Below are positions 1 through 25,762 of a stretch of DNA of 39,413 nt, one piece after another. Numbering within the stretch: position 1 is the first letter of the stretch; each line of letters opens with the position of its first letter. The notes under the pieces were generated by a model. That model was not told the DNA's origin, did no database searches, and saw only the letters and a list, made by a program, of their open reading frames with translations. Origin of the DNA: a virus (taxonomy: Duplodnaviria; Caudoviricetes); the IMG/VR virus record IMGVR_UViG_3300044568_001191, positions 1 through 39,413 of that record; one strand, 5' to 3'. The position numbers and the translations under genes are program-made.

Positions 1-127
1 CCGATTCGGGTGGCATTTCCATGAAGCGGTCGCGGAGCGTTTCAAGGTAAGTCTCTCGCTTGTAGGTCATCTTGGATTCCATTTTGGAGCGGAGTTCTTC
101 CACTCTCTTAGTGATATCAACATTTTT
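1..127. repeat. Terminal direct repeat (circular assembly overlap), left copy
   Basis: 1-127 is identical to 39287-39413 and the terS frame continues across the junction. 127 is a common assembler k-mer length. Confidence 0.95.
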
Positions 128-253
128 CAACAATCGCTCACCTCCTTGTCCTGCTCCATTTTCGGAGTAGCCGGCACGGATATAGGCTTGCGTGATTGAA
201 AGCCCGCTCGCATAGGCTTGGCAGAATGCTTCTTGTTTGGGGTTGATCTTCAT
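1..253 (-). CDS. terS: Terminase small subunit, 5' part (continues at 39286..39171)
   Basis: ATG at 253 gives MKINPKQEAFCQAYASGLSITQAYIRAGYSENGAGQGGERLLKNVDI, the typical TerS N-terminal HTH. It lies directly upstream of terL on the circle. Confidence 0.9.
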   Translation of the reverse strand, partial: MKINPKQEAFCQAYASGLSITQAYIRAGYSENGAGQGGERLLKNVDITKRVEELRSKMESKMTYKRETYLETLRDRFMEMPPES

Positions 254-261
254 AAGCGTTC

Positions 262-276
262 GGTATCAGTCAAAAC
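262..276 (-). promoter_or_regulatory. Conserved 15-bp box GTTTTGACTGATACC, copy 1
   Basis: Exact copy, 8 nt before the terS ATG. It contains the TGA stop of the RusA-like ORF. Confidence 0.75.
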
Positions 277-685
277 GAGTCTTGACAAGATTCGTCTTCC
301 CCCTTTTATAATCCCCACTGCTGCGCGTTATTTGGATGGTCGTTTTTTCTTCGGCCTTCGTTTTGCACTTGGCTTGGCGGAACGTGATTTCGATGGTTTC
401 CGGGTCGTCGTCTTCGATGAGCTTTGCGTAGCGGAGTTGGTCGATGAGAGGCTTGCAACCGCCTGCATAATTGTCGGCATCGAGGAGTCGCACGGCATGC
501 CTCGTAATGATGAGAGCAGTGCGAGGCGGGCGCGTTTCTTTTCCTTTTGGAGGAGGGTCCAGTGTTGGCCGAGCAGGCGGTTGAGGCTTGGGGTTGTGTA
601 TCCCGGCAGTTGTAGAGTGAGAGTAGCTTCCATCGGGGTTAGGTCGGTATCCGAGCTTTTCGAGTTGGTCATGTGTCCAGTTCAT
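266..685 (-). CDS. rusA: RusA-like Holliday junction resolvase, catalytic (C-terminal) frame
   Basis: RLLDADNYAGGCKPLIDQLRYAKLIEDDD matches the RusA DxDN...K...D...DD signature. The ATG at 685 overlaps the upstream stop (ATGA). Confidence 0.7.
   Translation of the reverse strand: MNWTHDQLEKLGYRPNPDGSYSHSTTAGIHNPKPQPPARPTLDPPPKGKETRPPRTALIITRHAVRLLDADNYAGGCKPLIDQLRYAKLIEDDDPETIEITFRQAKCKTKAEEKTTIQITRSSGDYKRGKTNLVKTRFD
328..672 (-). CDS. Overlapping alternative-frame ORF carrying a RusA N-terminal-like segment
   Basis: LTLQLPGYTTPSLNRLLGQHWTLLQKEKK resembles the RusA N-terminal 'LP..PSLN....HW' motif. Possible starts at 672 or 633. Confidence 0.5.
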   Translation of the reverse strand: MTNSKSSDTDLTPMEATLTLQLPGYTTPSLNRLLGQHWTLLQKEKKRARLALLSSLRGMPCDSSMPTIMQAVASLSSTNSATQSSSKTTTRKPSKSRSAKPSAKRRPKKKRPSK

Positions 686-1095
686 TGGGTATCGTCCTCG
701 ATGCAATCTGAGAGTTGAGACAGGCAGAACGCATCCTTTTTAATCAAATCGAGGATTGCTTTGAGCAACCTCACTTCCTCCCGCGCCTCGTCGCGCTCTT
801 TGTTTGCTTCGCGCACCTTGCCTTGAGCGATAACCATTTGATCAGTGGCTATTACAAAGGCCTCCCGCGCCTCGTCGCGCTCGCGTTCCAGTTTGCGAGC
901 GTGGAACATCATCAAACCATATCCAAGTGCATTACAATCGTTTGATTGATTTACAAAATCCGTCTCTGGCGTATCTCCCATTTTGTATCCCAACAAGCGC
1001 CGTGCCTCGTTACGTTCGCGTTCCAGTTGCTGAGCCCACTCGGTGGGCACGACATGGTTGCCCCGAGCGATGTCATCTGTTTGTGGTGTATTCAT
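682..1095 (-). CDS. Hypothetical coiled-coil protein with TPxTD / LERERDEAR repeats
   Basis: Repeated TPQTD/TPETD and (L)ERER(D/N)EAR units. Fits the operon spacing. Confidence 0.7.
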   Translation of the reverse strand: MNTPQTDDIARGNHVVPTEWAQQLERERNEARRLLGYKMGDTPETDFVNQSNDCNALGYGLMMFHARKLERERDEAREAFVIATDQMVIAQGKVREANKERDEAREEVRLLKAILDLIKKDAFCLSQLSDCIEDDTQ

Positions 1096-1099
1096 ATAT

Positions 1100-1303
1100 T
1101 TAAAACATGGGGCCATTTCGGCGCATGGCTTCGATTTTGCGGCGTTCTGGCGTGGCTTGCCAGAAGCGTTTGGAAGCGGCGTCGATCTCGCCTTCGAGGA
1201 GCGCCCACCACCGGTCGAGGCGGTCGGAGCCGCAGGATTCTGTTCCTGCGGCCCCTTGGCAGACGATTTCCCTGTTTCCTTTAGAACGAGATTTCTTCTT
1301 CAT
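1100..1303 (-). CDS. Small hypothetical protein
   Basis: ORF fills the gap between the SSB-like gene and the 682-1095 gene. Start is uncertain (ATG at 1303). Confidence 0.4.
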   Translation of the reverse strand: MKKKSRSKGNREIVCQGAAGTESCGSDRLDRWWALLEGEIDAASKRFWQATPERRKIEAMRRNGPMF

Positions 1304-1800: not shown

Positions 1801-2439
1801 TTATAATGAAAATTGCAGTTGAGGGCGGCGATCTCCTCCGGTTGATTGCTTTAAATAGCGATGGAGTTCCTCCAAGCGTTCCTCTCCTCCGCGCATCCAC
1901 CCCGTGCCATCGCAGGATTCCACTCCAGCTTCATGGCAAATCCAGAGGAGACGCTCAGAATTCACCCGTCCCACATGGACGCGTGGGAAGTTGTTTGTCC
2001 AAGTGTGTAGGTGCTTCCACTTCCACTCGGTTGTGCCTCCCACAAAAATCACATCCGCTTCATCCGGAACATCGTTTGGGGTCATTCCATCTTGAACAGC
2101 AAATGCAAACTTTACCCCATGAAGGCATTCTCTCAATTGCGGCATCCACTCATGCCAACGAATAATTGTTGCCTCTCGATCAGCGACTACATCCGGAACA
2201 ACAACCCATAGAGGCTTGTGTGCGGATTTTGATTTCTCAATCAATTTGAGAAATGCGTTTGCATCCCACTCCCGATCATTTACGAAAGCGCCATATGCTC
2301 CATTGTCTAAAGCGTAGGACATCCAGCTTGGTGGAGTTCGCCACCCATCTGGAGATAGCAACCAACCGATGCGCCCTTGGAACTTACCGGCAAGATAACC
2401 GATCTGGATGCCAGAGTTGTTGGAAGGCATCACCATCAT
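1801..2439 (-). CDS. TGT/DpdA-like TIM-barrel protein (possible DNA base-modification enzyme)
   Basis: Motif series ALDNGAY, VVPDVVAD, AVQDG, FVGG, VHVGRVN, SCDG resembles tRNA-guanine transglycosylase/DpdA-like proteins. ATGA overlap with the upstream stop. Confidence 0.5.
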   Translation of the reverse strand: MMVMPSNNSGIQIGYLAGKFQGRIGWLLSPDGWRTPPSWMSYALDNGAYGAFVNDREWDANAFLKLIEKSKSAHKPLWVVVPDVVADREATIIRWHEWMPQLRECLHGVKFAFAVQDGMTPNDVPDEADVIFVGGTTEWKWKHLHTWTNNFPRVHVGRVNSERLLWICHEAGVESCDGTGWMRGGEERLEELHRYLKQSTGGDRRPQLQFSL

Positions 2440-3128
2440 GACACCACCTTCGTAAACTCCGATAACCGCCGGAGGATCGGCTCGCCACGGTCTGACGAGA
2501 GCATTTTGCGTAGGTCGCCCTTGACGGCGTTGGCCGTCCAAATGATGGGCAGTTCATGGGAGGATCGGTGTTCAAGGAGGTCGAAGAGTTCTAGCTCGCT
2601 GCGCTCGGTCATCTTCTGCTTGCCGAGGTCATCGAGGAGCAGCACCTTCGTCCGGCGGCAGCGGGTGAGCATGTCCTCGGCCAGCGACTTGGACTGGTGG
2701 TCGTCATGCCACTGGTCGGCGCAGGCTTTAGCGAAGGCCGTTGAGGTTATCCCGAAGACGCGAAGCCCGCTGAAATGCAGTCGCTTGAGCAGTATCCATG
2801 CCGCTCTGGTCTTACCGCAGCCCGCAGGCCCGATGAGTCCCATTCCAACTGGATTATACTGCCATGCCTCGCATTCGCGCAGGAAGGCGCTTGGGATGCG
2901 TCCGAGGTCGCTTTGGCGGTAGAGTGGTGGACATAGGGCATTGAATGCCTCCTGCCGCCTCTCCTGCTCTTCTGCGGCCTGCTCCTCGCGGAGCTTCTGG
3001 GAGTGCCGAGCGAGGCAATCCTCGCACAGCACCCGGAGGTTCGGGAAGTAGCGTGACACGTTCTCATCTGGTAGCGGGACCGACTCGAAACATTCCTCAG
3101 ACGCACAGGGTTGGTAGGTCATTACCAT
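2436..3128 (-). CDS. DnaC/IstB-like AAA+ helicase loader
   Basis: N-terminal Cys pairs, Walker A GPAGCGKT, Walker B LLLDDLG, and IIWTAN. Follows the initiator gene. Confidence 0.85.
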   Translation of the reverse strand: MVMTYQPCASEECFESVPLPDENVSRYFPNLRVLCEDCLARHSQKLREEQAAEEQERRQEAFNALCPPLYRQSDLGRIPSAFLRECEAWQYNPVGMGLIGPAGCGKTRAAWILLKRLHFSGLRVFGITSTAFAKACADQWHDDHQSKSLAEDMLTRCRRTKVLLLDDLGKQKMTERSELELFDLLEHRSSHELPIIWTANAVKGDLRKMLSSDRGEPILRRLSEFTKVVS

Positions 3129-3790
3129 TGCTCTACCTCCTCGACCTTGGCTGGGGCCAATGCCGGTTCCACCTTGTTGAGCCAGCCGATCACGAACATC
3201 CGGGTCTTCTTGCGTCCGGGGCGGGCGAGAAGCCACGCATCCATCTTGCGAGACTCGGCATCGACATCGACATTGGGGTAGTGCCGCTTCATCTCTGCCC
3301 AGAACTCCTCATCGAGAAGATAGGATTTTTTCGGAGCGCCTACTTCTTCTTTAGAAGAAGTATTAGTAATAGTAATAGAAGACTGAAGAGTTGCCTTTTT
3401 GTTGGTACTACCTTCCAACAACCCTTCAACTAAACTTGAACTACCCTTGCCGATTTTCCGCATTTCAGCGGACTTTCTGCCACCTTCGCGGCATTTTTCT
3501 GACCAAGCATCCTGTTTCTCCCTTTCCTTCTCTAGCCTGTCATGCACCAGCAAAGCAGGGTTGAAGGGGTGCGGTTGGAACATAGTTGCTAGGGTAGTTG
3601 CTAGGGTAGTTGAAGCACCCTTGCCTATGAGTCTCGCGATCATGTCGGGAGCCGAAGGGATCGACCCGTGTTGCCAGCATGATGCCAGCAACCTCAGATA
3701 TGCTCCCTCCTCCTCCAACGTGAGCAGAGAGACCCGCTGCGACCCTAGCCAGTCGCCGGGGTAGAATTGAAATGCTGGGCGCTTAGTCAT
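3122..3790 (-). CDS. Replication initiator (YdaU/DUF1376-like)
   Basis: PAFQFYPGDWLGSQRVSLLTLEEEGAYLRLLASCW N-terminus. Carries internal iteron-like repeats and precedes the DnaC-like gene. Confidence 0.8.
   Translation of the reverse strand: MTKRPAFQFYPGDWLGSQRVSLLTLEEEGAYLRLLASCWQHGSIPSAPDMIARLIGKGASTTLATTLATMFQPHPFNPALLVHDRLEKEREKQDAWSEKCREGGRKSAEMRKIGKGSSSLVEGLLEGSTNKKATLQSSITITNTSSKEEVGAPKKSYLLDEEFWAEMKRHYPNVDVDAESRKMDAWLLARPGRKKTRMFVIGWLNKVEPALAPAKVEEVEQW
3355..3612. repeat. Probable replication origin: iterons plus AT-rich tract inside the initiator gene
   Basis: TAGTTGCTAGGG x2.5 at 3583-3612. Four related 11-bp units (consensus CTACCCTTSAA) in the opposite orientation at 3408-3450. 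AT-rich run near 3355-3380. Confidence 0.65.
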
Positions 3791-4664
3791 TTGAGATTCC
3801 CTCCAAGAATTCTCCATGCTGTTGCAGCCACAAGCGGAACTTGTCCATTTCCAATGGCTTTAAGTCGCTTTGACCTATCGGCCACCCCATTAGCCACTCG
3901 ACCCAATCGGGATTCAGTTGACCAATCTGCGGGGTCTGATCGCCACCATAAGCAACTGCATTCGGTAACTGATCCATTCGTGATTTTCCGTCTTGCCTCG
4001 TCAGTGCCTCTGGTGTATTTGATCCCTTCCAGTCCCTCGCGCACGGAGTAGGCCAGAATTTCGGAGTAACCACTTGTTCCGCCAAGCCGCCCGGAACATC
4101 TTTTCTGCCTATGCTCTTTCGATATTCTTCCCTCTTTCCCCTCCGCGTTTCTGTTGGAGAAATGTTTAGGCAAGTTGGAGTGAGCCAGTATCCAGATTCT
4201 TTCTCTTTTGTGAGGAGCGGAAACGTGATGCGCTCCCACAATCCCCCATTCCGCATCATACCCCATTTCGGAAAGGTCTCCAAGCACTCGCCCAAGTCCT
4301 CGAAGAGTAAGCATTGGGCTGTTCTCCATGAACGCGAATTTCGGTCGTATTTCGCCAATGATTCGGGCCATTTCTGACCAGAGTCCGCTTCGTTCTCCTT
4401 CAATTCCAGACCCCCCCCCTGCGATTGAAATGTCTTGGCAAGGGAATCCTCCGCAGACGACATCGACTTTCCCTCGCCACGGAGTTCCGTCGAAGGTGGT
4501 GACATCATTCCAGATTGGGAACTTTGGAAGGATTCCATCCCGCTGCCTTTGCAGCAGGACTTTCTGGCAATAAGGTTCAATCTCGACAGCACACACTGGG
4601 GTATGTCCGAGAAGGATGCCGCCGAGGATTCCTCCCCCTGCTCCAGCAAATAAGTGTAGCTCAT
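3783..4664 (-). CDS. Overlapping alternative-frame methyltransferase partner (TRD-like and motif IX-like)
   Basis: 293-aa ORF offset by 4 nt, with W(L/P)TP repeats and LNPDWVEWLMGWP (motif IX-like). Its ATG overlaps the upstream gene's TGA. Confidence 0.7.
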   Translation of the reverse strand: MSYTYLLEQGEESSAASFSDIPQCVLSRLNLIARKSCCKGSGMESFQSSQSGMMSPPSTELRGEGKSMSSAEDSLAKTFQSQGGGLELKENEADSGQKWPESLAKYDRNSRSWRTAQCLLFEDLGECLETFPKWGMMRNGGLWERITFPLLTKEKESGYWLTPTCLNISPTETRRGKREEYRKSIGRKDVPGGLAEQVVTPKFWPTPCARDWKGSNTPEALTRQDGKSRMDQLPNAVAYGGDQTPQIGQLNPDWVEWLMGWPIGQSDLKPLEMDKFRLWLQQHGEFLEGISND

Positions 4665-4668
4665 TCAC
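3787..4668 (-). CDS. DNA (cytosine-5) methyltransferase, main frame
   Basis: Motif I LFAGAGG, IV GGFPCQ, VI ENSP, VIII HKRERIWI, X RLKAIGNGQV. Confidence 0.92.
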   Translation of the reverse strand: MNELHLFAGAGGGILGGILLGHTPVCAVEIEPYCQKVLLQRQRDGILPKFPIWNDVTTFDGTPWRGKVDVVCGGFPCQDISIAGGGSGIEGERSGLWSEMARIIGEIRPKFAFMENSPMLTLRGLGRVLGDLSEMGYDAEWGIVGAHHVSAPHKRERIWILAHSNLPKHFSNRNAEGKEGRISKEHRQKRCSGRLGGTSGYSEILAYSVREGLEGIKYTRGTDEARRKITNGSVTECSCLWWRSDPADWSTESRLGRVANGVADRSKRLKAIGNGQVPLVAATAWRILGGNLK

Positions 4669-8458: not shown

Positions 8459-9460
8459 TCAAATCTTCCAGAATGCTTTCCAATCGGCTCTCACGGCAGG
8501 AACGGCATAGACACGTTGCACCATCGTGGGAGATGTATGCCCCATCTGGTATGCCGTGAGACCAGCATTGCCACAACGTGCCAGATGGTAAGTCGCGAAC
8601 GAATGCCGCATCGCATTGTCGGGCCAACCCTCCCATCCCAACGCCAACACAACCTTCCTCCTTCGCTCGTAGAGCGCCTCCAGCGACCCGCTCACAATCT
8701 GCCCTGTCTTCTTCTCGAAAAACTTTTTGCGCTTCATCAGCGGTTCAGTCATATCGACCACCCGCTCCAGCATACCTTCATGCTGTTTGGAGACTTCCTT
8801 GCGGATATAGATTTGCTTTGTCTTCACATCGATATCTTCCCAATTCATCCGAGACACCTCTATAGTCCGCAGGCCCGCGAACCCACCCAAAAGGATAAGC
8901 GCCTTTACATCGTCCGGCATCGGAGCCTTGAGAAGGGATATCATTTTTTCAGCAGTCAAAATATTCCTTCCCGGAGTTGCTCTTGGAGGTCGAACTCCAT
9001 CGAGCGGCGAGCGGTCAATGAACCGCATGCGATAGCACCAGCGGAAAAACATCCGCGCATAACGAAACCACATCGACCGGCTCGTCTCCGTCTTACCCAT
9101 GTCCTTCACCCATCGCTCTACCTCAATCGAGGTCACATCATCGATGCGACACTTGAATTGCCGCATAAGCGCAATCTGGGTTGCTGCCACCTTATCTCTG
9201 TGGCTTTTACTTTTTCCATCCACTCCCCTAGCCCACAATGTCGCGGCCTGCGATACCGTTACTCCCTCCCTATCCGTCAAAGATTGTGTGCCTTTTTCGC
9301 GAATAAGTGACACCAACCTTTCCCCCTCCTCAAAAGCTTCCTGTTCGGAAGCAAAGAATCTGCGTATTTTTTTTCCTGCAAACGCCGACCTCACCTCCAG
9401 CTTCCACGGAGAGACAGGTCGAAGAGGGTAAGGCGACACGATAAATGGGGTTAGGATCAT
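8459..9460 (-). CDS. int: Tyrosine integrase
   Basis: GLRTIE (R), NAMRHSFATY, MGH and RVY catalytic set. Adjacent to attP. ATG at 9460 is preferred over the 9508 start. Confidence 0.92.
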   Translation of the reverse strand: MILTPFIVSPYPLRPVSPWKLEVRSAFAGKKIRRFFASEQEAFEEGERLVSLIREKGTQSLTDREGVTVSQAATLWARGVDGKSKSHRDKVAATQIALMRQFKCRIDDVTSIEVERWVKDMGKTETSRSMWFRYARMFFRWCYRMRFIDRSPLDGVRPPRATPGRNILTAEKMISLLKAPMPDDVKALILLGGFAGLRTIEVSRMNWEDIDVKTKQIYIRKEVSKQHEGMLERVVDMTEPLMKRKKFFEKKTGQIVSGSLEALYERRRKVVLALGWEGWPDNAMRHSFATYHLARCGNAGLTAYQMGHTSPTMVQRVYAVPAVRADWKAFWKI

Positions 9461-9470
9461 ATTGTTTATT

Positions 9471-9500
9471 GTTGCTCGCTGTTGTCCGCTGTTGTCCGCA
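9471..9500. repeat. Integrase arm-type repeats (left)
   Basis: GTTGCTCGCT-GTTGTCCGCT-GTTGTCCGCA with a 10-bp period. Confidence 0.6.
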
Positions 9501-9585
9501 AGCTGCACTTAAAAGCCAATATTAACCAAAATGAACAAACATCAAGCAACAATAAAGAGAGTCTGTCTGAGTGCTTAGATAAAGG

Positions 9586-10680: not shown

Positions 10681-13600
10681 TCAATCTTCGGTTTTGGCGT
10701 TTTCGTAGAGTCCCATGACCGGCTTGACCATGTTCAGCAGTACGGCTGGCGCTGCCATTGCTGGCGAGAGCGCCATCGAGCGGAAGATGTTGTTCCACTC
10801 TTTGAACATAGCGTCTGGGTCGTCGAGGTCGAAGGCGTCTTCTAGATTGTTCCCCGCCCGCACCCCCTGCTCCATGGCAGAGAGTAATGGATTTTGCGTG
10901 GTGCTGTTGAAAGTTTTCTGCCCTGTCAGTTTTGAAATGGCAAGCTCACCGAGAGTACCTGCGAAGAAGTACCCTTGCAGCGGGGCGAGGAGAATGGCCT
11001 TGGCAAATCCGCCGAGGTTCCAGATTTCCTCATCGTCGTCATCCGATAGACCATCACGGAATGCACTGGAGACCACATGGGAAAGTACGGCCATGGTTTC
11101 GATGGCAAGGATTCGGCGGATGTGTGTTCCCTTGTCACCACTCCCTGTAGCCAGTCCGCGAGCGGCATCGGCGAGGACGGCGGTTTTTAATCGTGCATCA
11201 GACATGAACAGGAAAAACATTTTGGCCATCACATTGCCGTTGTTTTCGATGATGCTTTTCTGACCGAAACTGACCGGCTGCGCGAATTGGTAAATGGCTT
11301 TACTGGCGGCATCGAGAGCAGTCTGTTTGGCGAGTTGTTCCGGCATTCCCGCTTTTAGCGCATCGATGAGGTTGGCTCGGTAAACGATGGCAGAGGAAAT
11401 CGATGTCGCGGCTGAATCCATCCAGTTGATTGGAGTCATCGATGCCTCGGCAATCTTCGCTGCGAAGTTCGGTTTTCCTGCGTAGCGAGAGAAGAGGAAT
11501 TTTGCCTCGGCAGTCGCTCCACCTTGGAGCCGGTTTTGGATAGCCTCCGATTCCCAGACGGTTTGGATGTCTTCTACGATTGTCGATGGGTTGGATAGCG
11601 CAGAAACAATCTGACTCATGTCGAGAGCGAGGCCGAACCGAATGCTGTTGTCCAACTGCATAGCCAGCGTCTTGAGGTTGAATCCCAGCGAGGAAACCGC
11701 TTTGCCGGACAGGACCGTGCCGAGGATGGTGTTCATCCATGTGGATTCGCGGGCCTTGTTGCCGCCTCGTTGTTCCATTTGGTCGGCCCAAAGTTCGGCA
11801 TCCTTTAGCACACTTTCTCCGTGGGTTTGTTTAATGGATTCGCGAACCTCCGGGTTGGAAAGGATGGCGCGGAATTCGCGAGCGAGTTCGGCGAAGTGGA
11901 CCCAATGGGCCTGTTGCGCGATGTGACCCTGCATGACATTGAGCGCATCTTCTGGCGCGATCTTAGCCGAGTGCGTGACACGGGATTTTGCAAAGCCGGG
12001 AGTCGTGCCAGTGGAGGACGGTGACCCATCGAGGCCGATATCCTTTGTGTCCTTGGCATTGATGAAGCGTGTTGGGGCGTAGTTTTTCACTTGCGGCATA
12101 TTCATGCCGAACATCCGCGAATAGACTGGATTCACGATGCCTGCGCCTTTGCCGTAGAGTTCCTTGGCGTAGGCCATGACCTCGCGGGATACGGGGTCGT
12201 TGACGAGCGCCTTGAGGTCGGCTGCACTATCATCGGTCCACCCTTCTTTTCTCATCTTAATTTGGACGTCTGGCTGATTCCATGAGAGCAAATACTGCAT
12301 TGCTTTGCCACGGGACATGTCGAGCTTCACATCCTCACCACGGAAGATGACACGCTTGATGGTGACGAATTCCTTTTGCGTGTCGGCAGGGAGTGCGGCG
12401 AGTTCGTTGCGGAGGGTCTCCACATCGGAGTCGGTGAGCTTGCTTCGGTCGGCCTCGCCGGTGACGATCTTTTGAGCGAGGTCGATGGCAATGCGCTCGT
12501 CCTTGACCTTGCGGCCTTCAAGGTATGAGACGGCATTTTTCTGGTCGGCCTTGAGCCAGAGCATGGCATCAGCGGTTGACATGTTCGCAGCCTTTGCTCC
12601 TGCCCGGACGGCATCGATGATGCCCTTGCGATCACGGATTTCCGCTGCTTGCGAAGCTTCATCGGCCTTGCGGAGTCGGTCTGACCATTTTGTTGCAATT
12701 TCCGGCGGGAAGATTGCGGTGACGAACTGCTCAAAGTTTGCGTGTGAAAGCAAATAGTGGTTCGCCAGATCGCTTGCCAGTTCGGATTTGGTTTTGGTGG
12801 CGTTGCGTTTTTTTGCTGTGCCTTTTCCGAGCCATTCGATGGTCGCTGCGTTACGCGCACGCTGTTCATCGATGCGGGCCTGCTCTTTTATGCGCCACGC
12901 TTCGCGGCCCATTTGGAATTGTCCCTTGAGCCAATCGAGTCCCTGCGCGAGCGTCTCGGAGGATCGGTTGTCGAGGTCTCCAAAAGTGTTGAGGATCGAC
13001 CACTCTTCGGAGAGAGCGGAGATGTCTTCGGCGGTAGCGTCCGGCAGGGTGAGCGCAGCCTCGATCTCGGCCATGCGCTTGGCAGTAGCCTCGTCATCGA
13101 GGAGCGTAGCGCGGAGGACCGTATCGGCGAACTTCTGCGTCTCGGCTCCCAGCGTGGATTTGCGGACTCCGTTGTCACCGGCCTTCGGGCGGGATTGCTT
13201 CACGACCTTGGTGATGGCCTCGGTGTATTCGCGCACCAGCACCTTTTCGAGTTCGGTGTCCATGCGTTTGATGCGGTCGCGGAAGAAGTCGGCGATGCTC
13301 TTGTCGGCCCGCTTGGTGGAGAGATTCTCGGTGGCCTCGTAGCCCGGAGGGAAATCCACTTTCTTCCCGGCTTGCCCAATGTTCAAACCTTGATCCATCC
13401 ACGCGCTGATCAGCGCCCCTTTCATCCCGCTGACCTCGCTGATTTTCACTCCATCCTTTAGGACATCCATCGGCGCGATACCGGCGAGCTTGGTGTAGCC
13501 ACCCACCCTGCCGCGCACTTCGGGCGGGAGGACTGAGAGGATGCCGTCGAGTTCGCCGAGGGCTTGTAGGATTTGCGTGCGGCGGATTTGCGAGTCGTCG

Positions 13601-16600
13601 GAGCCGGTGTCGGCCATCGCGGCGAGTTCGTCGGAATTCCACGCCATGAGCTTTGAGAATTTAGCCTTGGCCCGCTGGTAGACCTTGAGACGCTCGTCTG
13701 GGCCTCGGTTCATGCCGCCCAGCGCCTTGTTCACCCGGTCGATCTCCGACTGGCTGGCTATGGAGTAGTTTACTCCTCCGCTTCCATCTCCGCCCTTGCG
13801 TCCTTGTCGAACTCCAGATTGAACACTTCCTGCGGAGTTAGCGTTCTGCCCAGCATTTTTTCCCACGCTCCCTTGGATTCCCGAATTGGCGCTACCCACT
13901 CTGGCCCATTCTGGGGGAGTGATTCCCAGCTTGATGATTTGAGTTCTTGCAGAGTTAGCATCTTGAGAAGATTGCCATATTTTGGCGATATTTGCAACAA
14001 AGTTCTTGTCTCGCTTCTTGACATCGGTGAACAGCCCACGGATCGCTTCCCATGTGATGGATTGCATCTGCCGAGGCATTACTTTCCGAGCCGCAGCCGC
14101 TTCGCGCAGGGCTTCGTGGAAGAGCCAATAGGTTCCAGAGTTGCCTCCACCCGCCACACCCGCACCACCGAAGTTTAGATTGACCAAATACCCCTTGTTT
14201 CCCATCGGGAAAAGCACGGCGGCATTCACTGCGTGAGTGTCCACGGTGGCGTCTCCATATGGAGATGTGGGGGCGACGATGTTGTTGTAGAAGTTCCGAA
14301 TCTTGTGTTCGGTTCCCAGCACCTTGGAAATGTTTTTGGCGCTTCCGTCCTCGTAAATGGAAATCGCCTTTTCGATGAAAGTATAAGATTGCCACACCAA
14401 CTTCTTGTTTGTGCCGTTGAGGTTTTTGCGTATTCCAAGAGACTCCCCTTCTGGAGACAATACATCATGCGTCAGCCCATGCACATGTGTTGACATGAGC
14501 CGAACGGCAACTGCGGTGACTTTTCTTCCTTCCTCAGTTTTGTCGGCCAGAAGCTGTGAAATAGAGCGGCCTTTGATCTTCTTAAATGCTTTGCGGAGAT
14601 CGCTCTCGTTTTCGGCGGCAGTGAGCATCTCACTCATAGCATTGCCCACCGTAGCTTTTGAAATCTGCGTGTTCTTGTGGTTAGCCATCACATCGGCAAA
14701 CCTCTGACCCATTGCCACATTCTGGAACCAATCCTTCATCGGGCTGAATACCGCGATGACGGCTGATGATTGCTCAATAGTTAGCCCATACAGGTCACGA
14801 ATCCCTTCAGCGAGTAACCTTGCTCCATCATACCAATGCGTGGAGCGGATCACATAGTCGTGTGATAGATCATCAAATGCATCATAGAGGGCCAAGAGGT
14901 TTCCCTTTTGGAAATCGATGAAGGCCCGCATCCTCTCCTCTGGGTTTTGGAATTTGGTGATGAACTCTGGCAAAGGAACCCCATCGACAAAATGCGTGAG
15001 CATAGCCATTTGCTTTTCAAGTTCCTTTGCATTGATCGTAGCTATGCCGTCATTGGTGTCTTGCGTTGTGGGCTTGACCTTGCCCTGCCACGCAGTGCCG
15101 ACCCTGCTGCCGTCATGTTTTGGGTCTTCCTTGGTAATCTCATCGAAGCGAATGCCTCCGGCTGATTTCTTTTTTCCGATGCTGTAGTTGATGTTCGGGC
15201 TTGTCGGATCGAATGTGCCGCGATTGCCGGTGGCGGATTTGACCTGCGTCTCGTTGAAGGGAATCCAAACTTGGTGTTGCACGCCACCGCGCTTGCCGCC
15301 GGTGTCTTTGATTCCATCGTAACCGAAAGTCGAAAGGGTTTCTGTCACCCAATCTGGAATGCGTGTCCATGCGTGTGTCGATCCCTTGGCCATGTCCTCT
15401 TTCAATGCGGCCATCCACTCGTTTCCGCTGATGGTATTCTTGTCCCATGAATCAGCATTTTTACCCGCTGATTGCTTTGCCCGCTTGCGCTTCCCTGCTT
15501 GTTCCAAAGCAGAAATGACATCGGTTGGGATGTCTGCCGTATCGAGAGGGTTTTTGATGTCAAGATAGACAGGGTAAACCGCAGACCGGACCGAATTTGG
15601 ATCGTCCAGCGATGCGCCTTTGACGCCCGCCGCTTGCAATACTTCTAAAAACTTTTCCTCTTGGTTGAAAAGTGACCCGCTGGAAAGCCACATTTCGACC
15701 ATGGCGCGGAGAGCATTACCGCGAGCTTGGCGCAGTTCGTAGTCGATGCTGTCGCGTGACATGATGCTCTGGGAATCCGCAACAATCGGGCCGGTATATT
15801 CATCAGCGTTGGAATACCCCACGGTGTAGATGCGCTCCTTGATGGTGGCGCGTTCTGCCTCCGATAGGTTCCACCATGCTTGGTCGATATTGACCGGCGA
15901 ACGCATTCCCTTCCCTTTCCACTTGAACCACCCAGCGTAGTCGGAAGGCATCTCCATAGATGTGTCCATCTTTCCCGTTGCGTAAGACGAAGCAACTTCT
16001 GGATCACTCGTAAAATAAGCCATCGGTCCAGAGGTTGCGCGGGATTTTCGGAAGCGATCCCCCACTCGATCCGGCCTTTGAGTTCCGTGGAAAACGATTT
16101 GAGGTTTCCCATCTTGATCGACCACCTTGGAGGAAGTCTGCGGATCGTTTTCCCAATCTCCGAACCATCCCTTGAATGGCGTTGTCCCAATGCTGTAGTT
16201 GGTCGCGCCGGTATCAGTCAAAACATCACTGGCAACCCGCTCGCGTGCGGTATCGACACGCGCCTGCTGGTTGAGGCCAACCGAGTCGGCGAGGAAGGAT
16301 TCAAAGTTGGCGTCCACCTTGCCCTCGGCGATGGCGCGTTTGAGGTTGTAGGCGCGGCGGTAGATGTCTTTCACGACGATGGCCATCCGGCGCAGGAATC
16401 CACGGAACCCAGCGGGAATCTGCTCCTCGCGAATGCGCCCTGTCATGTAGGCCAAGGCGACATCAGAAAATGACTCGATGACATCGGTGTCAGTCTCGGT
16501 GCGGAGAGTGTGGCCCGTGATGCGCTCGCTATCGATGAGCGGGATGACTTGGTTGAGGTTCTCTCGCACCCAGTCCATGGTGATGCGTTGCTCCGCGATG

Positions 16601-19002
16601 GCACGCTTGAGGTTATCCTGCGAGAAGTCGCGCACGACTTTGTCGCCGGTCGCTCCACCATAGATGCGGATCACGGATTTGAAGATGCCCTCGGCAAGCA
16701 CACCTTGGTTGCTGGCAAGGACAGGGAAGTTGGCGAGTTCGGCGGGTTCTGAAATATCCTTCCCGATAGTACCTACGGTCTGGAAGAGGTTATCGAGGTT
16801 CTTTTCAGTGGGGTTGGCCTCGTATTCGTTGAGGAGGTCGCGGGGAGCATCGCTCAAAAGGAACTTCTGGATATCCTCGCCTCGACCAATGGATTCATTC
16901 CACCGGTTCAAAAATGACATGGACTCAAAGATGCCACGGGTCGTGCCGGTGATCTGGTTGCGTAAGAGTTCGCTGATGGCGATCTGTGCGGTCTGCGCGT
17001 CTTCGGTGCTGTATCGGACCTCGCCCTTGGGATCGCGGATGACAAACTTTTTGCTGCCATCGGCGAGGGTTTCGCGGGTGAGCGTGTGCGTGTTAGAGTC
17101 TTGCTGCTGCTCTTGAGCGGAGGTGATTTTTCCCTCTATGTAGGACACGCCTGCTTTGACATTCTCCGGGGTGAGCTTACCGAATTCGGTCTGGAAATTT
17201 TGCTGCACTTCGGCCAGGTCTTTTCCGTCCTCGATTTTTTTGATGGCGGCATCGTCCATGCCTGTCATGCGATAGATATCTTGGCGCTCCTCAAATTGGG
17301 CGAAGCGTTTGTTATCTGCAAAGCTGGCTACGCCTGTGCCAAAAAAGATGGTAGGAAGCGATGCGGCGAGGACATCAAGCCGTGACCCTTCCCATTTCTC
17401 AAGGATGGGTTGCCACTTCACATCCGGCACATCGGCTCCGAGCGCCTCGGCGACATCCTGCACCAGCGGGGTGGTGAGGTCTTGAGCGCCTTCCACAAGT
17501 TGCTCGCCGGTGGCGGCGGTCAAGAAGCGCACGCCCGCGCTGCCAGCTTTACCCACGCGAGCGGGGTTGCCGATCTTACGCATGAGTTTCTCAAAGACAG
17601 GGAGCTTACCGAAGAGCGCCTTCGCGCCGGTGCGCTCCATCCCAGCTTGGATGGCTGCGCTCACGCTACCGACCTGTATGGCTTGATCCACATTCATCCC
17701 TTGGCTGCGGAGTTGGTCGTACTCGTCGGAAAACATAGCTGCCCCTGCGAGGTAGGGACCGACGAATGGGACTAAAGCCGTGGCAGTGTAGGCCAGACCT
17801 TGCGGCGAGCCATAGGCCATTGATTCCATGAAACCGAGGAACCCGCCCTTGTTGATCTTTTCGATGGGGTCAAACTGATTGTCAGCGACATTCTTGAGTT
17901 CGCGGATGACCTCGAAACGCTTGACCTTCTGGCGGGCCTTGGCGGCATCGGCGGCGATCTCCTCTGGGGTGACCTTGCGGAGGTCGGCCTCGTCGTGGAA
18001 GGCGCTGTTGGCGAGCGGGATTTTTTCTCCCGTGGATTTGGAAATGAAATAATCTGGTGGAGTTTCTTTGTTCTCCAGCATGCGGAGGTCGGATTCTGCT
18101 GACATCTCCTGTGCGGTGAGCGCCCCTGTGCGGACCATGTTGAGGGTGCGGCTCCAGCTTTCTCCCCACTGCTCCATGAATGTCTTCGGGTCTTGACCGG
18201 CCTTTTTTGCCCCAAGCACGACCGAGGCGTAGGCCCGCTCGCGCACTGGCTTGGGCATGGAGGCGAGGGTGTCCACCATGGAATCCATCTCCTCTTCGTT
18301 CTTGGGGTTGGTCTCCCCTGCCCGCTCGGTATCTCGCCCGGTGACTGCGGAAAAGTGGTCGTAGACCTTTTTGAGAGGCTCGGCGTAGTCGCGGAGCATG
18401 CCCTCGGTCTCGGTGTGGAAGGCTTGCGCGGATTCCAAGAGCGGGGTTTCCCATCCCGGAGGCAGCTTCTTGATCGCCTCGGCGTTCTTGGTCTTCCAAG
18501 TCTCGATCAGTTTGGGAACATCCACGGGATCGCCACCACCGATGGAGTCGAATAGGGAAAGGGCGATGTCGCCGGGGATTTGGTTTGCCGCCTCGGACAC
18601 TTCGTTGCGGGCGTCAATGCCCTGCTTGATGAGGCCAAAGGTTTCCTTCTCTGAAAGTCCATTTTTCCCAGCTACTGACTCTGTCCACTTGTCTCGGAAG
18701 GAAGGGTATGTTTCCTGCTGCTCCTCCGGGGTCTGGTCGAACTGCGAGGCGATGAACTGCCGGTTGGCGGTGCGGTAGCGGGAATCCTCGTCGAAATCCT
18801 GCAACCCAGCCTCGTTCACATAGCCATCGAAGTCGGAGTAGATTTTGTTGAGCGTGTCGAACTGCTCGCGCTTCTGGTCGGCATCCTTCTGGTCGGCCCA
18901 GAGGCGAAGCGCCTCGGCGCGGGAGTCACGCTCTGCTCCTTCCAAAGTGTCGAGGTCGTTGTAGTATGTGGTTGCTGTGTCGTCGTCAATGATGTCGATC
19001 AT
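10681..19002 (-). CDS. Giant internal virion/ejection polyvalent protein (ART-PolyVal-like and HhH-glycosylase-like modules)
   Basis: 2773 aa in the gp16-like position. FKGWFGDWE..SKVVDQDGKPQIVFHGT...YFT...VYPVYL.IKNP...GYDGI...QVKSATGNRGTFD is ART-PolyVal-like. WY...AVFSP..W.QNV...KIRNFYNNI...TVDTHA...QMQSITW forms a second module. Confidence 0.85.
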   Translation of the reverse strand: MIDIIDDDTATTYYNDLDTLEGAERDSRAEALRLWADQKDADQKREQFDTLNKIYSDFDGYVNEAGLQDFDEDSRYRTANRQFIASQFDQTPEEQQETYPSFRDKWTESVAGKNGLSEKETFGLIKQGIDARNEVSEAANQIPGDIALSLFDSIGGGDPVDVPKLIETWKTKNAEAIKKLPPGWETPLLESAQAFHTETEGMLRDYAEPLKKVYDHFSAVTGRDTERAGETNPKNEEEMDSMVDTLASMPKPVRERAYASVVLGAKKAGQDPKTFMEQWGESWSRTLNMVRTGALTAQEMSAESDLRMLENKETPPDYFISKSTGEKIPLANSAFHDEADLRKVTPEEIAADAAKARQKVKRFEVIRELKNVADNQFDPIEKINKGGFLGFMESMAYGSPQGLAYTATALVPFVGPYLAGAAMFSDEYDQLRSQGMNVDQAIQVGSVSAAIQAGMERTGAKALFGKLPVFEKLMRKIGNPARVGKAGSAGVRFLTAATGEQLVEGAQDLTTPLVQDVAEALGADVPDVKWQPILEKWEGSRLDVLAASLPTIFFGTGVASFADNKRFAQFEERQDIYRMTGMDDAAIKKIEDGKDLAEVQQNFQTEFGKLTPENVKAGVSYIEGKITSAQEQQQDSNTHTLTRETLADGSKKFVIRDPKGEVRYSTEDAQTAQIAISELLRNQITGTTRGIFESMSFLNRWNESIGRGEDIQKFLLSDAPRDLLNEYEANPTEKNLDNLFQTVGTIGKDISEPAELANFPVLASNQGVLAEGIFKSVIRIYGGATGDKVVRDFSQDNLKRAIAEQRITMDWVRENLNQVIPLIDSERITGHTLRTETDTDVIESFSDVALAYMTGRIREEQIPAGFRGFLRRMAIVVKDIYRRAYNLKRAIAEGKVDANFESFLADSVGLNQQARVDTARERVASDVLTDTGATNYSIGTTPFKGWFGDWENDPQTSSKVVDQDGKPQIVFHGTQRPDRVGDRFRKSRATSGPMAYFTSDPEVASSYATGKMDTSMEMPSDYAGWFKWKGKGMRSPVNIDQAWWNLSEAERATIKERIYTVGYSNADEYTGPIVADSQSIMSRDSIDYELRQARGNALRAMVEMWLSSGSLFNQEEKFLEVLQAAGVKGASLDDPNSVRSAVYPVYLDIKNPLDTADIPTDVISALEQAGKRKRAKQSAGKNADSWDKNTISGNEWMAALKEDMAKGSTHAWTRIPDWVTETLSTFGYDGIKDTGGKRGGVQHQVWIPFNETQVKSATGNRGTFDPTSPNINYSIGKKKSAGGIRFDEITKEDPKHDGSRVGTAWQGKVKPTTQDTNDGIATINAKELEKQMAMLTHFVDGVPLPEFITKFQNPEERMRAFIDFQKGNLLALYDAFDDLSHDYVIRSTHWYDGARLLAEGIRDLYGLTIEQSSAVIAVFSPMKDWFQNVAMGQRFADVMANHKNTQISKATVGNAMSEMLTAAENESDLRKAFKKIKGRSISQLLADKTEEGRKVTAVAVRLMSTHVHGLTHDVLSPEGESLGIRKNLNGTNKKLVWQSYTFIEKAISIYEDGSAKNISKVLGTEHKIRNFYNNIVAPTSPYGDATVDTHAVNAAVLFPMGNKGYLVNLNFGGAGVAGGGNSGTYWLFHEALREAAAARKVMPRQMQSITWEAIRGLFTDVKKRDKNFVANIAKIWQSSQDANSARTQIIKLGITPPEWARVGSANSGIQGSVGKNAGQNANSAGSVQSGVRQGRKGGDGSGGVNYSIASQSEIDRVNKALGGMNRGPDERLKVYQRAKAKFSKLMAWNSDELAAMADTGSDDSQIRRTQILQALGELDGILSVLPPEVRGRVGGYTKLAGIAPMDVLKDGVKISEVSGMKGALISAWMDQGLNIGQAGKKVDFPPGYEATENLSTKRADKSIADFFRDRIKRMDTELEKVLVREYTEAITKVVKQSRPKAGDNGVRKSTLGAETQKFADTVLRATLLDDEATAKRMAEIEAALTLPDATAEDISALSEEWSILNTFGDLDNRSSETLAQGLDWLKGQFQMGREAWRIKEQARIDEQRARNAATIEWLGKGTAKKRNATKTKSELASDLANHYLLSHANFEQFVTAIFPPEIATKWSDRLRKADEASQAAEIRDRKGIIDAVRAGAKAANMSTADAMLWLKADQKNAVSYLEGRKVKDERIAIDLAQKIVTGEADRSKLTDSDVETLRNELAALPADTQKEFVTIKRVIFRGEDVKLDMSRGKAMQYLLSWNQPDVQIKMRKEGWTDDSAADLKALVNDPVSREVMAYAKELYGKGAGIVNPVYSRMFGMNMPQVKNYAPTRFINAKDTKDIGLDGSPSSTGTTPGFAKSRVTHSAKIAPEDALNVMQGHIAQQAHWVHFAELAREFRAILSNPEVRESIKQTHGESVLKDAELWADQMEQRGGNKARESTWMNTILGTVLSGKAVSSLGFNLKTLAMQLDNSIRFGLALDMSQIVSALSNPSTIVEDIQTVWESEAIQNRLQGGATAEAKFLFSRYAGKPNFAAKIAEASMTPINWMDSAATSISSAIVYRANLIDALKAGMPEQLAKQTALDAASKAIYQFAQPVSFGQKSIIENNGNVMAKMFFLFMSDARLKTAVLADAARGLATGSGDKGTHIRRILAIETMAVLSHVVSSAFRDGLSDDDDEEIWNLGGFAKAILLAPLQGYFFAGTLGELAISKLTGQKTFNSTTQNPLLSAMEQGVRAGNNLEDAFDLDDPDAMFKEWNNIFRSMALSPAMAAPAVLLNMVKPVMGLYENAKTED
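16210..16224 (-). promoter_or_regulatory. Conserved 15-bp box, copy 4 (intragenic)
   Basis: Exact copy encoding VLTDT, 9 nt before the NYSIG boundary of the ART module. Confidence 0.5.
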
Positions 19003-22470: not shown

Positions 22471-22884
22471 TTATTGAAGGTATTGAACTAAATGGATCAT
22501 ATTTTCGTCGGTTCGTTTGAACCCAGTTTTTTCGTAAACCTTGGCGAGCGAATCCTGTTTACATGTCGTGAGCATGATGGTGTATCCCATGTCCTTGGCG
22601 CGGTCTCGCAGGAATGAGGCGACACACTTGATTCCTTTGTAGACCTTCTTTGGCGCGGCTTCTGGGTCTGCCACCATCCACTCTAAAATTGAAACTCCAC
22701 AACTATTGTCGAGGTACACCCATCCCGATGCGACAGGCTTTTCATTGAAAAAAGCCATCACGCCAAGCTTTGGAAGAAATGCCTTATGCAAGGCGGGCCA
22801 CCCATGCCCCTCCCACCATCCGGCTACGGTCTCGTAATCGGTTTCTGGGTCAAACATTTTGAGGGTTGGAACTATGTCATTCAT
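22471..22884 (-). CDS. GNAT-fold acetyltransferase-like virion-module protein
   Basis: AKDMGYTIMLTT..SLAKVYEKTGF is a GNAT-like C-terminus. Lies between the nozzle and ejection genes (gp13-like position). Confidence 0.65.
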   Translation of the reverse strand: MNDIVPTLKMFDPETDYETVAGWWEGHGWPALHKAFLPKLGVMAFFNEKPVASGWVYLDNSCGVSILEWMVADPEAAPKKVYKGIKCVASFLRDRAKDMGYTIMLTTCKQDSLAKVYEKTGFKRTDENMIHLVQYLQ

Positions 22885-25762
22885 TTCCGTAGGCGTCCCA
22901 GACAGGTTCGATGGCGAGTACACACATTGGGTATGGGTCACTTTGCTGGACGGATACATCGGCGTCGAATCCAAACGTGCCTGCGGTCAAGATTTTTTGA
23001 TCGCCCGTAGTGAGGGTCGCGGCGAGGTCGTACCACTGCCCGGCATTCACGCGCACTTCGCCGCCTTTGCTCTTTTGAGTTCGCACGACGACCTTGTGGA
23101 TGCGTTTCTTGCGGCCTTGCGATGACCCGTCTTCTAGGTCCATGTCGAGCTTCATCGGCGTGAGGGTCGAAATGTAGGGCAGTCCAACATATCCGGCGGT
23201 GGTAGCGGGAACGGTGACCGCTCCTCCAGACACGACCGCAGTGCCGGTGAGGACTCCATTTTGCACAATGGTGACCTGCTTGCCATTGAGGTGCGAGAGA
23301 CCTGCTACGCTGCGGTTGGCCGCGCCGGAAGCAAAAGCCACATGCCCATCAAGGTAGCGCCATGAGGCGCTCGTCTGGTTGTCGAAAGCGGTGCGCCACA
23401 GGAGCGGGAACCGCTCGATGGTGCGGTAGGTCTGCCCGGAGACGGTGCGCTTGACGACCATCCAGACCTCGTCCTCTGTGCCATTCCCATAGATCGTAGC
23501 GACCGACTCGACATCGGCATTGTCGGCGATGGTGTGGCGATGCCAGCCGACGACTTTTTGGTCGCGCTCGTAGGTCATGCCAATGAGCGTGCCATCGCCG
23601 CGCACGCACCAGAGAATGGCGTCTGGTTGCTGCTGGTAGGCGACCTCGACGATTTCGCCGACCGTGATGTGTTCGGCAAGCAGAGTCAGATCGGGAGCGA
23701 CCCACCCGTCTTTGTTGAGTTCGTAGACGAGTTCGCGCACCTTGCGTCCGTTGCGTTGCACGAAGAGGAGGACATCGTTGACCATCGCGGCCCGCATATA
23801 TTTGCTCCCGTAGCTGGCCTGCCTGCGCGTCTTGACGTTGGTGGCTGAGAGCGCCGAGGCAGAATCCGCTGCGCCAATCGTCCACTCATCGCCGGATGTT
23901 CCGACGAGCATTTCACTCTGCGAGAACATCCAGTTGATGCGGTTGCCTTCCGAAGCCGCGAGGGTGAACTGGACCGCATCGCTGGCATTGACTCCGAGTT
24001 CAAAGTTTTCAAAGTCTCCAATGGCACTGCACCAAATCGTATTGGGTTGCGCCTTGGTCCCACCGAAGCAGAGTCTCTGCTCATGCAGACACACCGAGCG
24101 AGGGTATCCACTGGTCGCGTTGAATGCCCCGTATTGCCAGTATTTCGTTTTTGCGCCGGTGGCGGCGAGACGGCCAAGCCACTTGTCCACATTTATTGTG
24201 TTAGTTCCTGTGATGGTCGCGACCCCGCCGATGATCGGCGTAGAGCTATCGATGCGGGCGTTGGGAACCTGTTGCGTGGTCCATCTAGAGGCATCGAACG
24301 ATGCTGTCGAAGTGTGCGCCAGCACGCAGTAGTAGGTCTTGCCGCCAGAGTAGACAAAGTCGCCGACCACATAGACCGTACTTGCGGCCCAGTTGTAGGC
24401 GATCTTTTGCGCGTTGCGGATGATAATCTTGAGTCCACAGAGACTATCTTCCGTTCCACTTGTGATGATATTTTTGTCGTTGTCCACGATGTATTCGCGG
24501 ACGATTTCCATTTGACTCAAGTTCTCCGGGAAGACATCGCGGTAGCCAGTGAGAGCGGGAGCGGTCACGACATTGTAGCGATAGGTATTCGTCGTCACGG
24601 AGTAGATCGTGGCATTCGGTGCGGGATAGGCTCCTGTTACCGAAATGATGTCGCCATCTGACCATCCATGACTAGGTTGGTAGACCTCGATGGCCTTTCC
24701 ACCAACAGGGAGGCCAAGGCCAGCTATGACTCCTGCCTGCATGATCTCGGCTGGCACGCGCAGGATTTGGATCATTGCTCCCCATGTGCCAGAAGTTTCA
24801 AAATCCCATGCCCCGTCAACAAGGAGCGTTTCGCTTTCAAAATTACCGACGATTTCGATCTGCTTGTAGAGATTGGAATTCTGCCATTTGAGTTCGATCT
24901 GCGATCCCACATACCCAGCGGATGGGATGTTTTGTATAAACACGCCCATTTCGTTTGAGACCAATGGGAGTGACGAGATATTGCCTGCTGCAACATCGGC
25001 TTTAAATGTGGTCGCGGTAAAATCTTTTAGTGCGCGAAAAGTAATGGTTGATGAAATGTCGTCCCATTTCGTGGCGTCAAAAGTCACCCCAGAGGTATGG
25101 GCAACTTTGCATTTGTAAGTTCGGGGAGAGCTTGTGTATACCCAATCCCCTACAGCATAAACGACTGAAGCAGCCCAAAAAGGTGGGACATTCAGTTGGT
25201 CTTTTAAATAAAAAGACCCACTAGCATAGTTTGCGGATGCGATATTCAAATACAACTTCGTCTGATTTTCCGAGCTATCGAGCAGAGGCGGGTAGGCAAA
25301 TTGGACCTTCTCAAACGTCCAGTTGGTATCCGACAACCGCGAGAGTTTGTGCGGAGGGTAGTTCGCGTGCGCGAAGTACAAGATGTCGTTGATCTGGCAG
25401 TATTGGATTTCGCGCAGATCGGCTCCCGCATACGGAGTGACGAGTTCCGTGCCGCCGCTAGAAATGGCTTGCAGCGCCCCTGTGGCGGGATTCCACACAC
25501 GGAGGTAGCCTACGCCAAGCTCGATCACGAAGCGGGTCGTGGTGGAGAAGTTGAACCCGATCAATCGGGTTTGCGTGGACGAGGCTTTGGTTGTTCCGAC
25601 ATACTGAGTCCCCGGACGGCGGATCACGCCGCCGTAGGGCAGGATTTGGAAGTTCTCCAACGTGCGGCAGGCCGAGCGATATTTATCCAAGGACGTCCGG
25701 GCGTCCACCATGGGGGAGACTTCACCGGCGTTGAAGCTGGGATAAAAATCGAATTTCGGCAT
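22877..25762 (-). CDS. Tail tubular protein B / nozzle (T7 gp12-like)
   Basis: SFNAGEVSP, LENFQILPYGGVIRRPGT, GYPRSVCLHEQRLCFGG, DLTLLAEH, VVGWHRH. Confidence 0.88.
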   Translation of the reverse strand: MPKFDFYPSFNAGEVSPMVDARTSLDKYRSACRTLENFQILPYGGVIRRPGTQYVGTTKASSTQTRLIGFNFSTTTRFVIELGVGYLRVWNPATGALQAISSGGTELVTPYAGADLREIQYCQINDILYFAHANYPPHKLSRLSDTNWTFEKVQFAYPPLLDSSENQTKLYLNIASANYASGSFYLKDQLNVPPFWAASVVYAVGDWVYTSSPRTYKCKVAHTSGVTFDATKWDDISSTITFRALKDFTATTFKADVAAGNISSLPLVSNEMGVFIQNIPSAGYVGSQIELKWQNSNLYKQIEIVGNFESETLLVDGAWDFETSGTWGAMIQILRVPAEIMQAGVIAGLGLPVGGKAIEVYQPSHGWSDGDIISVTGAYPAPNATIYSVTTNTYRYNVVTAPALTGYRDVFPENLSQMEIVREYIVDNDKNIITSGTEDSLCGLKIIIRNAQKIAYNWAASTVYVVGDFVYSGGKTYYCVLAHTSTASFDASRWTTQQVPNARIDSSTPIIGGVATITGTNTINVDKWLGRLAATGAKTKYWQYGAFNATSGYPRSVCLHEQRLCFGGTKAQPNTIWCSAIGDFENFELGVNASDAVQFTLAASEGNRINWMFSQSEMLVGTSGDEWTIGAADSASALSATNVKTRRQASYGSKYMRAAMVNDVLLFVQRNGRKVRELVYELNKDGWVAPDLTLLAEHITVGEIVEVAYQQQPDAILWCVRGDGTLIGMTYERDQKVVGWHRHTIADNADVESVATIYGNGTEDEVWMVVKRTVSGQTYRTIERFPLLWRTAFDNQTSASWRYLDGHVAFASGAANRSVAGLSHLNGKQVTIVQNGVLTGTAVVSGGAVTVPATTAGYVGLPYISTLTPMKLDMDLEDGSSQGRKKRIHKVVVRTQKSKGGEVRVNAGQWYDLAATLTTGDQKILTAGTFGFDADVSVQQSDPYPMCVLAIEPVWDAYGNE

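Follow-up and report, generated by a model that had tools for sequence, protein, structure and literature searches.

Two halves of a RusA-like fold in overlapping reading frames of a phage genome: a candidate two-chain resolvase

The resolvase RusA of Escherichia coli, encoded in the DLP12 prophage (PDB 1Q8R, 2H8C and 2H8E; Pfam PF05866; phrog_34 and phrog_1682), is a single chain of 120 amino acids in which residues 13-16 contact DNA and D70, D72, K76 and D90/D91 are catalytic (PMC1636454). Normally monomeric enzymes can also occur as two complementary polypeptides, as in the C5 methyltransferases M.EcoHK31I and M.AquI (PMC3404938). Overlapping viral genes with interacting products have been reviewed as 11 cases, treated as the appearance of new proteins by overprinting, and the word 'resolvase' does not occur in that review (PMC8227390). 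No split or dual-coded RusA is described in the literature searched, which covers few of the subscription journals. The DNA considered here, the 39,413-nucleotide tailed-phage record IMGVR_UViG_3300044568_001191 (hereafter the window), carries such a candidate in two overlapping frames of its minus strand, frame A (positions 266-685) and frame B (328-672). An original prediction from the DNA alone had suggested either a two-chain enzyme from nested frames or a single chain made by −1 frameshifting. The first of these is favoured, with a probability of roughly 0.75: A and B would each supply half of a RusA fold from overlapping, conserved frames, and the separately initiated chains would assemble into one resolvase. 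This reading draws on the layout and its conservation, on the homology that each half shows, on selection acting on the two frames and on the start codons, all of them features of the DNA itself.

The longer frame, A (685->266, minus strand), is an open reading frame (ORF) of 139 codons, in which sequence, structural model and profile matches define an N-terminal mini-domain, a linker and a RusA catalytic core comprising strand 2, helix 2 and strands 3-4. Residues 1-22 (620-685) are predicted to form a small helix and β-hairpin (helix 5-10, strands 13-15 and 21-23 in the model), conserved in frame A. The earlier description of this N-terminus as Pro-rich and unlike RusA holds only in part, residues 1-23 being a conserved predicted helix and hairpin and not simply a Pro-rich segment. 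The linker, residues 23-54 (524-619), is coil in the model, has its entropy peak at the third codon position of B and owes most of its sequence to the shadow of B's strand 1, PSLN turn and helix. It is followed by strand 2, RTALIITRH (497-523), which is dual-coded with the end of the B helix, and by the catalytic motifs D69-x-D71-N72, K78 and D92-D93 (401-481; DADN at 470-481, GGCK at 452-463, DDDP at 401-412), the equivalents of RusA D70, D72, N73, K76 and D90/D91. The original prediction had placed these residues in the correct frame without naming a strand.

Frame B (672->328, minus strand) is +1 relative to A and encodes 114 residues from the ATG at 672 or 101 from the ATG at 633. The first of these start codons (670-672) consists of A's His5 codon, CAT, plus a G; the second (631-633) consists of A's Asp18 codon, GAT, plus a G, and lies near the start of single-chain RusA-like proteins. 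The strand-PSLN-helix segment anticipated for this frame is present as the B core (502-624), with the pattern LTLQL...PSLN...HW...KEKKRARLALL: strand 1 at 607-621, PSLN at 580-591, HW at 559-564, and helix 1 continuing to RARLALLSSLR at 502-534. All four PSLN residues are invariant in the B-core alignment, in part because of how the loci were selected. The run CAA AAG GAA AAG AAA (535-549), QKEKK in B, is kept as Lys-rich protein and not as slippery DNA. The remainder of B (331-501) is a Ser/Thr/Lys-rich tail, the shadow of A's catalytic part, which is stop-free in most lineages and lost in some. The predicted superposition of a helix in one frame on a strand in the other is borne out by bases 502-523, which encode both the end of B's helix and the strand of A.

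Comparison with contiguous relatives assigns each frame to a different portion of the fold. The single-chain RusA-like phage proteins (30 loci, e.g. L239 and L229; also the proteins P0263 and P0265) share the DxDNxxGGxK...DDxP core and the PSLN...HW front, but are contiguous: PSLN and the first Asp are 50-62 residues apart, and the +1 frame holds many stops. A profile built from 28 of these relatives matches the genome twice, through its positions 3-42 at 502-624 in frame B and through positions 52-117 at 323-529 in frame A; the two matches overlap by 28 bases and have E values of 1.5e-20 and 1.1e-3. Profile-profile comparison, which the original prediction had proposed for both frames, places the B core on single-chain residues 1-41 (E 3.4e-9), the A core on residues 51-120 (E 3.6e-29). 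By homology, therefore, the halves tile the single-chain protein without redundancy. More general searches gave weaker signals. A has low-scoring RusA-like PHROG matches (phrog_34 and phrog_1682, E 1.8e-4 and 1.7e-3), none of 46 B cores has a significant PHROG match, a Pfam scan matched neither A nor B, and a PDB sequence search with both profiles returned nothing meaningful. Among the single-chain relatives themselves, 8 of 28 match Pfam RusA (PF05866) at E values up to 0.05, the best at 3.5e-5. Language-model features of B residues 1-55 fall, as a lead only, in a cluster with 13% RusA at 0.95.

Structural models agree with this division. A modelled single-chain relative (pLDDT, a per-residue confidence score, 94) has the RusA fold, a four-stranded sheet with two helices on one side, and its best Foldseek matches are to E. 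coli RusA (2h8c, E 1.7e-4, template-modelling (TM) score 0.64). The model of A alone is partial: a small N-terminal helix-hairpin leads through a long coil to the back of the fold, and neither strand 1 nor helix 1 is present. The single-chain comparison (E 3.6e-29) and a weaker match (E 0.11) map D69, D71, N72, K78, D92 and D93 of A, which are invariant in a 27-sequence alignment, to the catalytic residues of RusA, and A has a three-residue insertion between the catalytic Asn and Lys. R62 is also invariant in that alignment and R66 lies nearby; the Arg-rich loop with R69 found in RusA is not seen. Mapping onto the E. coli residue roles assigns the S13/N15 DNA-contact turn and helix 1 to B and the active site to A, as far as equivalence of residues allows, and B probably also carries a Lys equivalent to R35. 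A further carries an N-terminal module and linker, and B a basic tail, that E. coli RusA does not have. Because it departs from RusA in its single-chain and R69 features, the locus is better described as a RusA-like variant than as a plain member of the family.

The split layout is widespread and always in the same phase. Among 79 loci found with A, PSLN lies in the +1 frame in 77, the misses being one truncated locus and one distant partial match. A blind scan that used only the catalytic residues of frame A gave 119 loci, of which 13 were dropped (7 too short, 6 duplicates); 76 of the 106 distinct viral loci have the split layout, and the other 30 are ordinary single chains. Around the core, 163 of 165 split loci have no stop in the +1 frame, the remaining two terminating just past the helix, whereas 28 of the 30 single-chain loci do have stops in that frame. 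The distance from PSLN to the Asp is 110, 116, 122 or 131 nucleotides, always in one phase, and 138 of the 165 loci have the 110-nucleotide spacing. In a second set from metagenomes and genomes, chosen by two motifs and not by open frames, 131 loci were reduced to 76 by removal of 19 short and 36 duplicate entries, and both frames are open in all 76. Openness of both frames in relatives, which the original prediction had named as a test, is thus seen in both collections.

At greater distance, a profile of A finds 643 clusters at E values up to 1e-10. Of the top 150 distant proteins, 13 were set aside (3 without the motif, 6 short, 4 with PSLN in frame), and the frame-A shadow of TPSLN is recognizable, at the protein level only, in 100 of the 137 scored representatives (5.6 in shuffles), in 85 of them at exactly −37. 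The deep alignment was too divergent to serve as a seed for locus searches. Two A-type queries had no match in a GenBank phage collection, so no cultured model was found. Several single loci call for separate mention. Two of them (L350 and L351) represent the locus occurring twice, about 40 kb apart and with the same proteins, on one 80-kb contig of a metagenome-assembled genome (MAG), possibly a circular phage assembled twice. In L443 the C-terminus of A continues, beyond the catalytic helix, as sequence resembling the B tail, which points to an indel in this copy. A contig from an RNA library spans 346-667 of the window and was not used as evidence, since contigs show neither transcription nor strand.

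Patterns of variation are consistent with selection on both frames. Across 36 representatives, nucleotide variability peaks at the third codon position of B from strand 1 to KEKK and at the third codon position of A from residue 63 onwards; between KEKK and A residue 63, both frames are constrained. In 27 of 27 representatives frame A stays open through the region that encodes B's strand, PSLN and the first half of its helix, where synonymous recoding of B would leave 12.5 open; the same holds for 40 of 40 more distant ones, for which 9.1 would be expected. An isoleucine codon of A at +28, which gives Leu in B, is ATT in 42 cases versus ATC in 2, set against Ile/Phe codons of the catalytic part that end in TC 229, TT 79 and TA 30 times. 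In a group of 22 loci in which the A strand has moved seven codons downstream, B retains Ala20, Ala23 and Leu24 in every member. As judged from these patterns, B is under selection ten codons past the putative slip run. Stop-forming codons are also scarce over the B tail (7 of 162, versus 40 of 124 in single chains matched for guanine-cytosine content and 171 of 945 in genes of the window), and the tail is Lys/Arg-rich in most lineages. It is reduced to 3-4 residues in L262 and L302 and is short in L368, with the core persisting; possibly this basic tail binds DNA and can be dispensed with. That B's stop is coupled to the following gene was rejected as a general rule, because it lies anywhere from −197 to +40 nucleotides relative to the stop of A.

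Start codons are available to both chains. Every one of the 165 loci has an in-frame A start upstream of PSLN. The N-terminal module motif of A occurs in 150 of them, with an entropy of 1.34 at the third position of frame A versus 0.85 and 0.74 at the other two, and over this module the B frame has stops in 16 of the 150. The module is missing in some distant relatives, e.g. L346. In L346 (a Prosthecobacter MAG), L415, L435 and L470, an A-frame ATG lies seven codons before PSLN, inside B's strand 1; because frame A is closed just upstream of this inner ATG in L346 and L435, A in these two would be made without its N-terminal module. For B, 63 of 67 representatives have an ATG at a distance of 9-34 codons ahead of PSLN (34.8 would be expected, and a tail control gives 34 of 56), often at 9-16 codons, where single-chain proteins begin, and the other four have ATG, GTG or TTG nearby. 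In all 96 loci with WxH[DE], the codon for the A His from which B's first ATG is formed reads CAT and never CAC. In L377, L378 and L439, about 11 codons before PSLN, a B ATG directly follows a B-frame TGA that lies inside an A-frame ATG, TTG or GTG; since the TGA sits inside the A start codon, possible A and B starts are there four bases apart.

The alternative that invites closest comparison is a programmed −1 frameshift or transcriptional slippage, in which ribosomes would initiate in B and change to A around QKEKK or at the helix end, yielding one shortened RusA chain. The order of the elements suits it, B preceding A in the fold and A being the −1 frame. The A_AAG slip tetramers noted in the 535-549 run do belong to a common class, A_AAR being present in 146 of 165 loci, but this abundance is explained by B's Lys codons. 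The base before the invariant Lys varies (entropy 1.58), the longest A run is 3-5 in 142 of 165 loci, and X_XXY_YYZ slippery heptamers occur in only 7 of 165 and 3 of 76 loci and nowhere in the window. RNA 3' of the run is unremarkable in five of five sequences folded for pseudoknot-free structures (z −0.74 to 0.62). Both frames are moreover selected on the wrong sides of the run, B past it and A, which is open there, upstream of it. A fusion at the run would place PSLN 37 residues from the first catalytic Asp, 13-25 residues short of the 50-62 in the 30 single chains. Because the helix end and strand 2 share bases at the 110-nucleotide spacing (138 of 165 loci), one shifted chain could not hold both. 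A single natural sequence does have the shortened architecture: P0210 (112 residues) joins a B-type front directly to an A-type back at the 37-residue spacing. It is one of four among the top 150 distant matches with PSLN in frame, together with P0128, also a shortened B-to-A join, and P0263 and P0265, which have a full single-chain look; all four are singletons in which sequence errors are possible. Frameshifting at this run is accordingly considered distinctly unlikely, and the two-chain alternative of the original prediction is the one that start codons, open frames and selection on both frames support.

Other readings accept two chains, or dispute the locus altogether. B might be a regulator or an accessory DNA-binding protein, acting for example through its basic tail, with A working without forming a RusA fold with B. 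The open, basic tail and A's own N-terminal module would fit such a role, but the conserved residues of B are those of single-chain strand 1, PSLN and helix 1, precisely the elements missing from the model of A alone, and the core outlasts the tail in the three tail-reduced loci, so this account is rated unlikely. A RusA-fold nuclease with another substrate, trimming branches for packaging for instance and not selective for Holliday junctions, could explain the non-conserved R69, the three-residue insertion and the frequent position of the gene directly upstream of terS. Retention of all catalytic residues and of the S13/N15 turn, and the RusA fold of the single-chain relatives, make it very unlikely; it is in any case compatible with the two-chain layout and changes only the substrate. 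The chance of an assembly error or recent pseudogene, for which nothing speaks beyond the unusual look of the locus, is negligible. An indel check suggested by the original prediction found a gapless full-stretch contig, which may itself be the source of this DNA, and two other contigs spanning the overlap that differ by substitutions only; the single indel listed in contigs is at 328, B's stop, and none falls in the A/B overlap among those examined. Assembly error and recent pseudogenization are excluded by the constant phase in 165 and 76 distinct loci together with this indel-free overlap, and an error by a single indel is excluded by the very fact that the halves overlap.

Several observations weigh against two separately initiated chains forming one resolvase. 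Translation of both chains, their assembly and any nuclease activity are predictions from the DNA. No clear Shine-Dalgarno sequence precedes B's starts, by eye in the contexts examined, and chance alone often places an ATG in an open +1 frame, as the tail control illustrates. The loci are kin, so that their counts are non-independent and the expected values are guides and not probabilities. The resemblance of the A-alone model to RusA is weak (rank 21, E 0.78), and the R69 position of RusA is Leu68 in A, as it is Leu in the single-chain relatives. The B tail is kept open beyond the need of a bare half-enzyme, for which the two-chain model gives no reason, and P0210 hints that a fused form may be viable. 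Finally, a tree of 64 catalytic cores (68 columns) is poorly resolved; the split and single labels cluster on it (5 changes versus 21.6 when shuffled), and it is compatible with one origin of the split layout or several.

If A and B do act together, a mechanism can be outlined. Immediately upstream lies an ORF of 144 residues (682-1116, minus strand) whose TGA, in the B frame, overlaps A's ATG as ATGA and precedes B's first ATG by 9 bases. Ribosomes leaving the upstream gene would most likely resume translation in one frame or the other, so that A and B would be made in about equal amounts. The A+B unit would complete the sheet-plus-two-helices fold and dimerize as RusA does to (AB)2, which would cleave Holliday junctions or branched DNA once replication or recombination has taken place and before the DNA is packaged, as RusA and the gene position suggest; such a role fits a locus between replication genes and the terminase small subunit. 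In an unrooted comparison, B probably keeps the ancestral gene start, since it often begins where single chains do, and A would have acquired its upstream start through the −1 frame once the linker had gone and the two halves had shifted across one another. The fuller scenario, held with slightly better than even confidence, is that a phage family large enough to make up hundreds of clusters at 50% identity has an obligate (AB)2 resolvase. The same bases would encode a helix and the strand close to which it packs; the gene would have arisen by fission with sliding halves, and the spare frames would have given rise to the N-terminal module of A and to a selected basic DNA-binding tail on B.

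Such a natural split nuclease would differ in kind from the systems described above. The small chain of EcoHK31I is reportedly read from an alternative frame inside the large gene, and here too complementary motif sets lie in two frames, each with a start codon; the enzyme family is another, however, and in the present case neighbouring secondary-structure elements share bases and the layout spans a large phage family. In contrast to the overprinted pairs of the review, both frames here descend from halves of one ancestral domain, pointing to a route to overlapping genes in which a single domain is split, its halves are overlapped and both are selected. With about 50 and 75 residues, the pair is a compact model in which to test how interacting parts co-evolve when they share codons. 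B has been missed, although widespread, because gene callers report one frame only, and its partner A looks like a truncated hypothetical protein; database matches number 554 for A-type and 104 for B-type sequences, though the two underlying searches cannot be compared strictly.

The window, which has direct terminal repeats, is a complete phage genome in which an integrase, a RecT-like protein, a primosomal protein, a DnaC-like loader and a methyltransferase precede the RusA locus. The gene immediately downstream (2-253, minus strand) encodes the terminase small subunit (Pfam Terminase_2, E 1.1e-16; phrog_51). E. coli RusA has a like position among phage replication and packaging genes. A search with the single-chain profile found no other RusA gene in this complete genome. 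Metagenome runs containing most of the window sequence are from lake and freshwater, and a pattern search for the split layout retrieved 11 loci from bins of bacterial genomes; 7 of the 11 are titled Verrucomicrobiota, and one lies on a 432-kb contig. On these grounds the host is probably a freshwater verrucomicrobium, with the proviso that stray phage contigs can sit in bins. The genome encodes a tyrosine integrase, from which the phage is likely temperate, and tail proteins with CBM_5_12 carbohydrate-binding modules (8459-9508, 22877-25762 and 29464-30939, minus strand). A phage polyvalent protein of 2773 residues with ART-PolyVal and DUF7178 domains occupies 10681-19002 (minus strand), and a 246-residue ORF at 1801-2541 (minus strand; phrog_15826), which has a weak queuine tRNA-ribosyltransferase match (E 0.036), overlaps the end of the DnaC-like gene.

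A second pair of nested frames lies at 3783-4668 (minus strand), where a C5 DNA methyltransferase is divided between two fully overlapping frames of 293 residues. The frame at 3787-4668 matches Pfam DNA_methylase and phrog_363; that at 3783-4664 matches the methyltransferase phrog_1008 (E 1.8e-22) and has WPTP-like and LNPxWVEWLMGWP motifs. From its motifs this pair looks like an EcoHK31I-type two-chain layout, and the same nested methyltransferase frames are carried by L347.
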